Shown: one piece after another, positions 9,015-12,351 of the stretch
Layout: each line of letters opens with the position of its first letter
Position numbering within the stretch: position 1 is the first letter of the stretch
Assembly (NCBI GenBank): GCA_964406735.1
Contig: CAYOSU010000005.1
Span: forward strand, 11,407 to 75,406
Direction: 5' to 3'
DNA: 64,000 nucleotides
From: an uncultured Clostridia bacterium
Lineage (GTDB): Bacteria; Bacillota; Clostridia; Christensenellales; CAMQZB01
Notes under the pieces: model-generated
The model's input: only the letters and a program-made list of their open reading frames with translations
The model's database searches: none
Told to the model about the DNA's origin: nothing
Program-made: the position numbers and the translations under genes

Positions 9015-9288
9015 ATTTAATAGCCATACTGAAAGGCAACGAAAAGAAGAGTAAGTTTATTACTGACTTTACAGAGAACCGATTTGAGGCTGAGAGATCG
9101 GAAGTTCAAGTGAAACCGAATATGGTCTTGGAGCTGCGTGGGCGAAATTATTTAGTTCACGACGCGAGTGCGCGTTATAGCACGGTACTGTGATGGCAGT
9201 ACGTCGAGGTTGCAGTCAAACGCAACGAAGTAAGGTGGTACCACGGATATTATATCCCGTCCTTATATTGTAGGACGGGATTTTTTTT
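9015..9288 (+). promoter_or_regulatory. T-box riboswitch leader (probable Met specifier) controlling metNIQ
   Basis: AGAGA-containing stem I and the T-box sequence AAGUAAGGUGGUACCACGG (about 9226-9246). Terminator AUCCCGUCC...GGACGGGAU (9254-9281) plus a U8 run. Candidate specifier AUG at 9122-9124, followed by G, in GAAUAUGG. Confidence 0.85.
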
Positions 9289-11623: not shown

Positions 11624-11767
11624 TTCTTCATGGTGCAAAATTGCAACTTTGTGGTAATCTGTGATTTTCGCGGCACAAGGAAGGGCGCTTCGGTCAGCCG
11701 CTAAAAACGAGGCCTCATGGACTGTTTTCTTAACGCTTTTGTTCGAGTCCCCCCCTATATCTTTTAC

Positions 11768-11803
11768 AAAACAAAAAAGAAGCCAAAGCTTCTTTTTCGT
11801 TTT
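11768..11803. terminator. palindromic bidirectional terminator-like hairpin (repeat copy 1)
   Basis: AAAACAAAAAAGAAGC-caaa-GCTTCTTTTTCGTTTT, with one mismatch relative to copy 2. Confidence 0.5.
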
Positions 11804-11925
11804 GGCGCACCCAGGGGGACTCGCTCTTGCGCGGCACAAGGAAGCCGCGCTTCGGTCAGCCGCTAAAAACAGTCCACTGGACTGTTTTCTTAACGCTTTT
11901 GTTCGAGTCCCCCTATATCTTTTAC

Positions 11926-11961
11926 AAAACAAAAAAGAAGCCAAAGCTTCTTTTTTGTTTT
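11926..11961. terminator. perfect 16-bp palindromic bidirectional terminator abutting the tRNA-Arg CCA end
   Basis: AAAACAAAAAAGAAGC-caaa-GCTTCTTTTTTGTTTT. On the minus strand it begins immediately after the tRNA CCA end and ends in a U-tract. Confidence 0.7.
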
Positions 11962-12037
11962 GGCGCACCCAGGGGGACTCGAACCCTAAGCCTTTGGTTC
12001 CGTAGACCAACGCTCTATCCAATTGAGCTATGGGTGC
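11961..12037 (-). tRNA. tRNA-Arg (anticodon ACG), CCA-encoded, with an unusually weak T stem
   Basis: Hand-folded 77-nt cloverleaf: acceptor GCACCCA/TGGGTGC, D arm GCTC-AATTGGATA-GAGC, anticodon arm TTGGT-CTACGGA-ACCAA, T loop TTCGAGT, discriminator G plus CCA. The T stem TAGGG/CCCCC has only three Watson-Crick pairs. Confidence 0.75.
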
Positions 12038-12201
12038 ATATATGAACTTTTTCAAGCCTATTTATTATATATATTTGAAAAAGTTTTGTCAAATCATAAA
12101 GGGGCTATTTTACTCTCTTTTTAGATTATTTTTCAATTTTTAGATTATCGATCTATTTTTGGCGAAGAAGTTAACGATTTTATCAACAGCCTTAATAAAA
12201 G

Positions 12202-12230
12202 TTGACAAATTTGTTATCCTTTGATATTAT
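12202..12230 (+). promoter_or_regulatory. sigma-A-type promoter (extended -10) for the pnuC leader
   Basis: TTGACA (12202-12207), a 17-nt spacer, then TGaTATTAT (-10 at 12225-12230). Confidence 0.6.
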
Positions 12231-12239
12231 AACATAAAG

Positions 12240-12345
12240 TTAAATATCTGTTGCCACCGGGTAACGCAAGATGCATCGGCATTCGAGTTTTTCGTCGTTA
12301 GGTCTTTGAAGACGAAAAGCACGGGTGCTTATTTTATTTTTGTGA
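12240..12345 (+). promoter_or_regulatory. structured 5' leader with a terminator-like hairpin upstream of pnuC (unassigned attenuator or riboswitch candidate)
   Basis: Hairpins GTTGCC/GGTAAC and GATGC/GCATT, the 8-bp hairpin TTTTCGTC/GACGAAAA (12289-12318), then AAGCAC-GG-GTGCTT (12317-12330) plus ATTTTATTTTT directly before the GAGGAG Shine-Dalgarno. Confidence 0.35.
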
Positions 12346-12351
12346 GGAGTT

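Follow-up and report, generated by a model that had tools for sequence, protein, structure and literature searches.

Genomic islands integrated at tRNA genes (tDNAs) consist of a complete tDNA, the inserted DNA, and a displaced fragment of the tDNA 3′ end in the same orientation; their attachment site attP is about 250 bp long, and the crossover subsites are the T-loop or the T/acceptor junction (PMC4383910). According to the Islander paper, only tyrosine integrases were known to target tDNAs (PMC4383910). The Islander pipeline discards candidates that are shorter than 2 kb or lack an integrase (PMC4383910), so that small gene-less insertions would be missed. Accretion of elements and integrase-less cis-mobilizable elements (CIMEs) have been described (PMC5704250), and in tycheposons newcomers push older elements outward (bioRxiv 10.1101/2020.12.28.424599). 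Here we analyzed a 64,000-nt stretch of the genome of an uncultured Clostridia bacterium of the order Christensenellales (assembly GCA_964406735.1, contig CAYOSU010000005.1, positions 11,407 to 75,406 of the forward strand), hereafter the window. In it a tRNA-Arg(ACG) gene is followed by two tandem gene-less insertion modules, of which the proximal one is intact and the distal one is older, truncated, and decaying. The repeated unit is a member of a widespread and previously undescribed family of gene-less insertion modules located at the ends of tRNA and transfer-messenger RNA (tmRNA) genes; literature searches returned no description of such modules.

Like tDNA islands, the modules are bordered on one side by an intact tDNA and on the other by its displaced 3′ fragment, which is in direct orientation and extends from the T-loop to CCA. 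Both also favour Ser, Leu, Arg, and tmRNA genes as targets, place the apparently newest element of an array beside the tDNA, and are present or absent at a site depending on the strain. Unlike islands, whose sizes range from 2 to 200 kb, the modules comprise only about 140–170 bp of inserted DNA and encode neither an integrase nor any other gene, while possessing a conserved body of covarying hairpins and an inverted copy of the target T-loop that islands are not known to need. With CIMEs they share att-like flanking repeats (attL- and attR-like ends are kept, whereas recombination and transfer genes are absent), accretion at tRNA 3′ ends, and presumed mobilization in trans. However, CIMEs are kilobase-sized decay products of identifiable parents, whereas no parent was seen for the modules at the 60 loci covered here, and the modules are about 100 times smaller and conserved in sequence and structure over many species and targets. 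A module works like a tDNA island or a CIME, but differs from them in gene content and in that no parent was identified among these loci.

Organization of the tRNA-Arg locus

The first-pass annotation of the window, made from the sequence alone, described a minus-strand tRNA-Arg(ACG) followed by a palindromic terminator after CCA, a 13-nt inverted copy of the T-loop and T-stem, and a further 21 nt that duplicate the tRNA 3′ end exactly, with the whole unit repeated in tandem. All these elements were recovered. Both ARAGORN and Rfam call the tRNA, the inverted match of the proximal module proved to be 14 nt long, and Tandem Repeats Finder reported one array at 11669–11981 with a period of 158, 2.0 copies, and 94% identity (score 559). 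A covariance model, designated R1, was built from 24 copies of the module. From the tRNA outward, the parts are as follows (window coordinates, with strand where one applies).

12092–12064, minus strand: promoter of tRNA-Arg, TTGACA-17-TATAAT, 12/12 consensus match
11961–12037, minus strand: tRNA-Arg(ACG), the target gene (ARAGORN; Rfam tRNA, 58.8 bits)
11981–11961, minus strand: repeated segment "B", the last 21 nt of tRNA-Arg, from T-loop C56 to CCA
11925–11962: bidirectional intrinsic terminator directly after CCA, part of the proximal module; arms 11925–11941 and 11946–11962, 17 bp, 100% complementary
11901–11914, plus strand (reads as tRNA sense): inverted copy of the tRNA T-loop and 3′ T-stem, proximal module; 14-nt perfect inverted repeat with 11971–11984
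11824–11900: GC-rich body of the proximal module; covariance model match 11803–11913, 107.6 bits
11889–11900: CTTAACGCTTTT, proximal body
11866–11888: terminator-like hairpin hp1, proximal body
11850–11870: invariant core CTTCGGTCAGCCGCTAAAAAC, proximal body; two copies in the window, 0 expected by chance
11829–11850: hairpin hp2, proximal body
11824–11829: CTCTTG, proximal body
11803–11823, minus strand: displaced tRNA 3′-end copy CGAGTCCCCCTGGGTGCGCCA, attR-like, proximal module; 21 nt, repeating 11961–11981 exactly and in direct orientation
11767–11804: second terminator copy, distal (older) module; 17-nt arms, 94% complementary
11741–11753, plus strand: inverted T-loop copy, distal module; exact 13-mer
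11666–11740: body of the distal module, from copy alignment; weak covariance model match, 56.9 bits

The window contains the 13-mer GTTCGAGTCCCCC at three places, 11741 (+), 11901 (+), and 11972 (−), against a chance expectation of 0.02. A spacer of 11 nt lies between the window terminator and the inverted copy (GGGGGACTCGAAC), and the 21-nt direct copy sits within a 73-nt block that is 99% identical to 11909–11981. The distal module is truncated at its outer end (5′ on the plus strand), where both CTCTTG and a tRNA-end copy of its own are missing. Its hp1 is disrupted, hp2 is altered, and the 7-bp hairpin of the proximal module is replaced, as the first reading had recorded. Relative to shuffled sequences, the fold of the proximal module has z-scores of −6.2 and −5.4 on the two strands, compared to −0.8 for the distal one. 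Scans with the core and with the covariance model detected no third copy of the unit within the 64-kb window. No open reading frame (ORF) was found within the 160-bp unit, in line with the earlier remark that the interval has no integrase. The Pfam summary of the window lists top families only, so that an integrase may still lie farther away within the 64 kb.

Logan short-read contigs of the same strain are interrupted at this locus: two of them (L001 and L002) end at window position 11747, within the module, and another (L006) begins at 12001, within the tRNA. Such breaks indicate that the repeats fragment assemblies, and the modules will therefore be under-represented in metagenome-assembled genomes (MAGs).

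A family of modules behind tRNA and tmRNA genes

The 21-nt core was found at 31 species-representative genome loci, nearly all labelled as Christensenellaceae, Christensenella, or Clostridia MAGs, as well as in 27 metagenome contigs from human gut and rumen and in a few viral contigs containing prophage borders. With model R1, about 73 strong copies were detected; they are spread over 60 loci in genomic and metagenomic sequences of Christensenellaceae and related Clostridia. A tRNA or tmRNA gene was located within 1 kb, on the expected side and strand, for 51 of the 73 strong copies, and nine copies lay at contig ends. The remaining 13 are explained by an intervening prophage or Tn7-like element, by a tmRNA missed by ARAGORN but found by Rfam, or by too little sequence. 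The targets include the genes for tRNA-Arg(ACG), tRNA-Ser(TGA/GCT/CGA), tRNA-Leu(CAG/TAG/CAA), tRNA-Glu(CTC), tRNA-Gln(TTG/CTG), tRNA-Ala(CGC), tRNA-Pro(CGG), and tmRNA. Wherever the flanking sequence suffices, the module is located 3′ of the last gene of a tRNA operon, or of tmRNA. Its polarity relative to the tRNA is identical in all 73 strong copies, and a shufflon-like inversion between alternating T-loop sites was rejected on this ground. Many tRNA genes in the module-bearing loci have no module at all.

Along the tRNA strand the order of parts is tRNA, terminator, short spacer, inverted T-loop copy, hp1, GTTTTTAGCGGCTGACCGAAG, hp2, CAAGAG, and the displaced tRNA 3′ end; the last 21–23 nt of the tRNA, from the T-loop to CCA, are thus present in duplicate. 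The module with this body, designated U, is about 160–190 bp in size, the repeated tRNA end included. The terminator begins 0–5 nt past CCA in 33 distinct tRNA loci. The inverted T-loop copy, 9–15 nt long, lies 5–25 nt past the terminator, at +47 to +60 behind the tRNA, and the direct tRNA-end copy (18–24 nt, from T-loop position 54–57 to CCA) ends +175 to +210 past the gene. Both copies match the adjacent tRNA, whichever tRNA it is. At locus L028 the direct copy has mutated, which breaks the helix it could form with the inverted copy, and the copy is still present.

Other body types have identical end architecture: they were found in L025 (tRNA-Leu(CAA) and tRNA-Leu(TAG)), L009 (tRNA-Ser(TGA)), L026 and L036 (tRNA-Ser(CGA)), L013 and L045 (tRNA-Pro(CGG), up to three tandem copies), and, as type "E", behind tRNA-Ser(GCT) in L039 and L054. 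Some of them share parts of the U body, and the inverted T-loop copy is present in every module type. A body-less hairpin of inverted and direct copies, a candidate pre-insertion target, was not found.

MITEs (miniature inverted-repeat transposable elements), repetitive extragenic palindromes (REPs), and REP doublets forming hairpins (REPINs) resemble the modules in being small, gene-less, hairpin-rich, and multicopy, with copies more alike within than between genomes. The first-pass annotation had allowed for an ordinary MITE. The unit is indeed dispersed, yet only behind tRNA and tmRNA genes and in one polarity, and it is therefore not an ordinary MITE; dispersal to unrelated sites was not observed. 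Moreover, the seeming terminal inverted repeat is target-derived and site-specific rather than the module's own, and the flanking repeat is 18–24 nt of tRNA instead of a short target-site duplication.

Empty and filled sites

A sister species, in which MetQ is 82–83% and PnuC 77% identical to the window proteins, shares the promoter and tRNA-Arg(ACG) of this locus but lacks the module: a terminator unlike that of the window follows the tRNA, and pnuC comes next. The tRNA-Arg promoter and the 5′ part of the tRNA are 86% identical between the two species and are inverted relative to metQ.

Within one human-gut species, whose tRNA-side flanks are 98.4–98.6% identical over 3.7–5.4 kb, both states of a site were found. 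In L054, which is empty for U, tRNA-Ser(GCT) is directly followed by a terminator, designated F, and a module E. In filled contigs of the L048 type, a 164-nt U and a 21-nt tRNA-end repeat are located exactly between CCA and terminator F. Other samples of this species showed the orders tRNA-U-E, tRNA-E-U-E′, and prophage-U-E-U. Each module carries its own terminator on the tRNA-proximal side, as would be expected if a module enters within the repeated tRNA segment. Distal copies decay, and the tRNAs stay intact.

The 21-nt duplicate had been taken in the first reading as a footprint of tRNA-targeted integration, and an insertion origin is now backed by the empty site of the sister species and by the filled/empty pair within a species. 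A simple deletion scar, the other alternative raised there, is dismissed because related genomes have an empty site instead of a prophage or an integrative and conjugative element (ICE). More generally, a purely local accident, in which the tRNA 3′ flank was duplicated in tandem or a prophage or ICE left a scar on its deletion, would be consistent with two adjacent window copies whose terminator/tRNA-end blocks are 99% identical, and with a locus rearranged relative to the sister species. Besides the empty site, such an accident is already contradicted by the same module behind 13 other tRNA types and tmRNA at about 60 loci in many species, and we regard it as most improbable.

Structure of the module body

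Read antisense to the tRNA, the body consists of CTCTTG, hp2, the invariant 21-mer, hp1, and TTTTCTTAACGCTCTC. The stem of hp2 is about 13 bp long and its loop is variable, and hp1 is flanked by runs of A and T, which makes it terminator-like on both strands. Among the 24 diverse copies, 92.4% of pair cells were standard, compared to 71.2% in column shuffles, and 130 cells were changed on both sides, compared to 32.6 in shuffles. None of the 500 shuffles matched any observed pairing measure, and sliding the partners abolished the signal. Covariation beyond all shuffles indicates that the hairpins are under selection.

The first-pass annotation had suggested, as its other reading, that each unit resembles a small structured RNA on the plus strand, roughly 130 nt long and ending in an intrinsic terminator, with an extended −10 element ahead of copy 1. 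The motif TGgTAATCT is indeed present at 11650–11658, upstream of the distal copy, but the promoter scan calls no promoter there, nothing comparable is conserved in the family, and a comparison of about 70 copies revealed no conserved promoter of the σ70 type. A search of Rfam 15 gave nothing credible on the unit at E up to 10, and only tRNA and T-box reached the gathering score. The module was assigned neither to a known RNA family nor to an independent small-RNA gene. The counts of G-T versus A-C cells favour the tRNA strand in hp2 and the opposite strand in hp1; inference of a functional strand from these counts was dropped, since the two hairpins contradict each other. The lack of a promoter and of an Rfam family, together with the split strand signal, argues against a simple small-RNA gene, whereas the body is compatible with hairpins or terminators acting at the DNA level. 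A gene of this kind on the plus or the tRNA strand, with its own promoter and terminator and duplicated once, would agree with the covarying hairpins and with a proximal fold that exceeds shuffles on both strands. However, transcripts of either strand would be terminated at the internal hp1 with its A/T runs, and the copy beside the putative −10 element is the decayed one. We consider a small-RNA gene very unlikely.

The modules could also represent a host-selected device in the 3′ flanks of tRNA and tmRNA operons, either stacked bidirectional terminators that insulate against convergent transcription or an RNA or DNA structure pairing with the T-arm and 3′ end of the tRNA. Duplication and gene conversion would then account for spread and uniformity, and the tRNA-matching ends would be under selection. 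Consistent with this, the invariant 21-mer and the covarying hairpins persist over family-level divergence while spacers are free to vary, the polarity is strict and the position always behind the last tRNA of the operon, the ends follow whichever tRNA is present, including cases in which species have different acceptor stems, the similarity of paralogs is confined to the body as if resulting from gene conversion, and both hp1 and the spacer hairpins are terminator-like on either strand. On the other hand, a host device would not be expected to show a clean within-species insertion polymorphism bounded by a 21-nt direct repeat, an empty site in the sister species, many module-free tRNAs at the same loci, several unrelated body types with a shared end architecture, decaying copies such as the distal one of the window, or the absence of a conserved promoter and of a consistent strand signal. 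This explanation appears unlikely, although not negligible.

Origin of the modules

The 103 neighbouring ORFs are of housekeeping type, with no enrichment for recombinases or tyrosine integrases. Only two to three large serine recombinases were found among the neighbours, and they belong to separate prophages or transposons. No autonomous relative, either an ICE or an integrative and mobilizable element, was detected among the 60 loci.

Since the inserted DNA is attP-sized and encodes nothing, a non-autonomous element with a recombinase acting in trans is favoured. We lean, if only slightly, toward the interpretation of the modules as non-autonomous, site-specifically inserting mini-elements, approximately of attP size, which are integrated by a recombinase in trans and accumulate by tandem accretion. 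Their topology is the attL-island-attR arrangement that results when an integrase crosses over at the T-loop or close to it. The recombinase would integrate a module at the 3′ end of a tRNA or tmRNA gene, and new modules would enter beside the tRNA and push older ones outward, resulting in tandem accretion. In the window, 11824–11981 would represent the younger module, the last 21 nt of which would now form the tRNA end, 11803–11823 would be the displaced fragment, and 11666–11802 the older truncated module.

Several points weigh against this interpretation. No recombinase is linked to the modules, and neither an excised circle nor an attP junction is in evidence. At about 170–190 bp, the circle that a tyrosine integrase would have to excise is very small. 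A standard attP needs no inverted T-loop copy, yet every module type has one, and hairpins that covary like a functional structure would not be required of a pure protein-binding attP. Further, U paralogs of the same genome (tmRNA versus tRNA-Arg in SVHG01; L022 versus L032) are about 93–95% identical only in the body and its T-loop-like flanks, while their terminators, spacers, and acceptor parts are unrelated and, like the inverted copies, target-specific. A simple circle hopping between targets would bring the terminator, spacer, and acceptor part along; similarity confined to the body requires modular exchange, gene conversion, or target-templated ends. Finally, unequal crossing-over between repeats, and deletion between them, could likewise produce tandem copies and differing orders. 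For the two window copies, an origin by unequal crossing-over is just as possible; their terminator/tRNA-end blocks are 99% identical and their bodies diverge more, with numbers too small to tell the two origins apart.

The inverted T-loop copy can pair with the displaced tRNA-end copy into a 10–13-bp helix identical to the target duplex; another possible partner, on the far side of the terminator, is the tRNA gene itself. The universal presence of this copy and the body-only identity of paralogs keep alive not only the host device but also insertion by a different chemistry. This could be catalyzed by an integrase making staggered cuts, as Cas1/casposase or transposase enzymes do, with duplication of a 21–23-bp target at the tRNA end, or could involve a single-stranded hairpin substrate in the manner of CTX-phi/Xer, attC, or HUH systems, in which the inverted T-loop copy would pair with the tRNA-end copy and mimic the duplex target. 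Casposons insert at the 3′ end of a tRNA gene with a 14–15-bp duplication, and CTX-phi has two inverted dif-like sites about 90 nt apart. The helix is possible in every module type, the repeat ends exactly at CCA, and the covariation has few G-T intermediates and no favoured strand, as would be the case for DNA hairpins. However, terminal inverted repeats proper to the modules are absent, the 103 neighbouring ORFs include no linked gene of Cas1, HUH, or Xer type, the helix lacks a second half-site past the T-loop, and the broken helix of L028 coexists with a persisting copy. Moreover, no transposase is known to produce a 21–23-bp target duplication. Integron attC arrays and CTX-phi or integrative mobile elements exploiting Xer resemble the modules in that gene-less units can be stacked in ordered arrays beside a fixed entry point, and in that a mimic of a recombination site could be formed by folding of inverted repeats separated by about 100 nt. 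In contrast to these systems, no IntI- or Xer-type enzyme or site was identified for the modules, the fold-back helix copies the tRNA T-arm rather than a core site, and no evidence of a single-stranded intermediate was obtained. Insertion by such chemistry is rather improbable.

A more far-reaching form of integration in trans has a modest chance at best: the modules may constitute an unrecognized class of mobile DNA that consists of an attachment site only and, lacking a recombinase, parasitizes enzymes acting on the T-arm. Their ends would be modular or target-templated, so that one body could colonize many targets, maybe by a fold-back that mimics the target.

Other elements at module sites

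Large serine recombinases were considered as the mobilizing enzyme and rejected: they occur beside U only in L012, L039, L040, and L075, where a prophage or transposon is joined at the CCA end, a different junction. The serine-recombinase prophage (Recombinase and Zn_ribbon_recom domains) covers L039 1400–2822, L075 560–3955, and L040 1090–1265, and its junction, …GTTTTGTTTG/CGGTTGCCC… (the slash marks the joint), lies exactly at the CCA end of tRNA-Ser(GCT), beside U modules. The 3.1-kb contig L012 (1–3102) encodes a chloramphenicol acetyltransferase flanked on both sides by a large serine recombinase gene; a U module also lies between these two genes, and the contig is a resistance-gene mosaic at a tRNA-end hotspot. 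In L022 (2330–2420) and L032 (3330–3460), an element end TGTGTG(G/C)C… abuts the U spacer where the CCA end of the tRNA should be; it contains repeated ATTTCGGACAC-like motifs in the style of Tn7-like ends.

The possibility that U is the end of a large island in L027, L038, and L046 was discarded, as the neighbouring 718-aa protein is RNase R and tmRNA lies 60 nt before the module; the order in L027 is rnr, tmRNA, and a U module with a nested insertion. This insertion, which is about 270 nt long and has inverted repeats of 20 bp (TTAGCCATTAGAGAGTTAAAG) at its ends, is located within U behind tmRNA (L027 5150–5440, and also in L038 and L046) and looks like a second kind of small element. Nor was U retained as a phage component: degenerate scans of viral contigs gave only prophage-border cases and one chance match, and BLAST searches of phage and plasmid collections returned only noise from A/T-run terminators.

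Features around the window tRNA-Arg gene

Upstream of the locus are metNIQ genes preceded by a T-box leader (window 9030–9267, +, 109.5 bits), and pnuC, degV, and leuS are located on the opposite side. The block of promoter and tRNA-Arg (window 12011–12140 versus L003 4549–4672; L068 1–400) is inverted relative to both metQ and pnuC. In the sister species the order is metQ, promoter, tRNA, terminator, and pnuC, and the inversion breakpoints coincide with the module-bearing side of tRNA-Arg.

The T stem of the window tRNA-Arg, TAGGG/CCCCC, has two mismatches and three Watson-Crick pairs, compared to TGGGG/CCCCC in the sister species, while neither the acceptor stem nor the T stem is imperfect in any other tRNA beside a module. 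The contig breaks within this gene indicate that paralogous tRNA-Arg copies exist. Given the weak T stem and these paralogs, the window copy may be partly impaired. The mismatched stem had also led to the proposal of a chimeric tRNA with a 3′ end supplied by the element. This is unsupported, as the tRNA of the empty sister site already has CCCCC and the window adds only a change of G50 to A.

A 19-nt tandem repeat (TTTTTAGATTAT…, 2.5 copies) occupies window positions 12114–12160, between the tRNA promoter and the pnuC promoter. The latter is strong (TTGACA-17-TATTAT, window 12202–12230, +) and is followed by a leader of about 120 nt that ends in a terminator-like hairpin; promoter and leader together occupy window 12202–12351 (+) and L068 215–383. 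The leader is conserved in the sister species as GTTGCCRCCGGGTAAC…GGCATTCG…TTTTTCGTC…GACGAAAA…GCTTATTTTATTTTT, and at E up to 10 no Rfam family matched it. A riboswitch or attenuator not described so far may thus be present here for the transporter of nicotinamide riboside/nicotinamide mononucleotide.

Implications for the Christensenellaceae

In Christensenellaceae, a gut family that has been studied a great deal, the modules are common and present an annotation hazard by yielding tandem tRNA-end fragments and breaking assemblies. Their sites are also used by prophages and Tn7-like elements, and the modules may shape which prophages can use tRNA sites. A new mechanism of targeting has a small chance of lying behind the ends, inverted and direct, that match each target. 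Such copies on one conserved body hint at modular or programmable recognition of tRNA genes, which would be of interest for site-specific insertion tools. If integration in trans is correct, tRNA-targeted integration would be exploitable by gene-less elements about one attP long, which would set a floor for element size.

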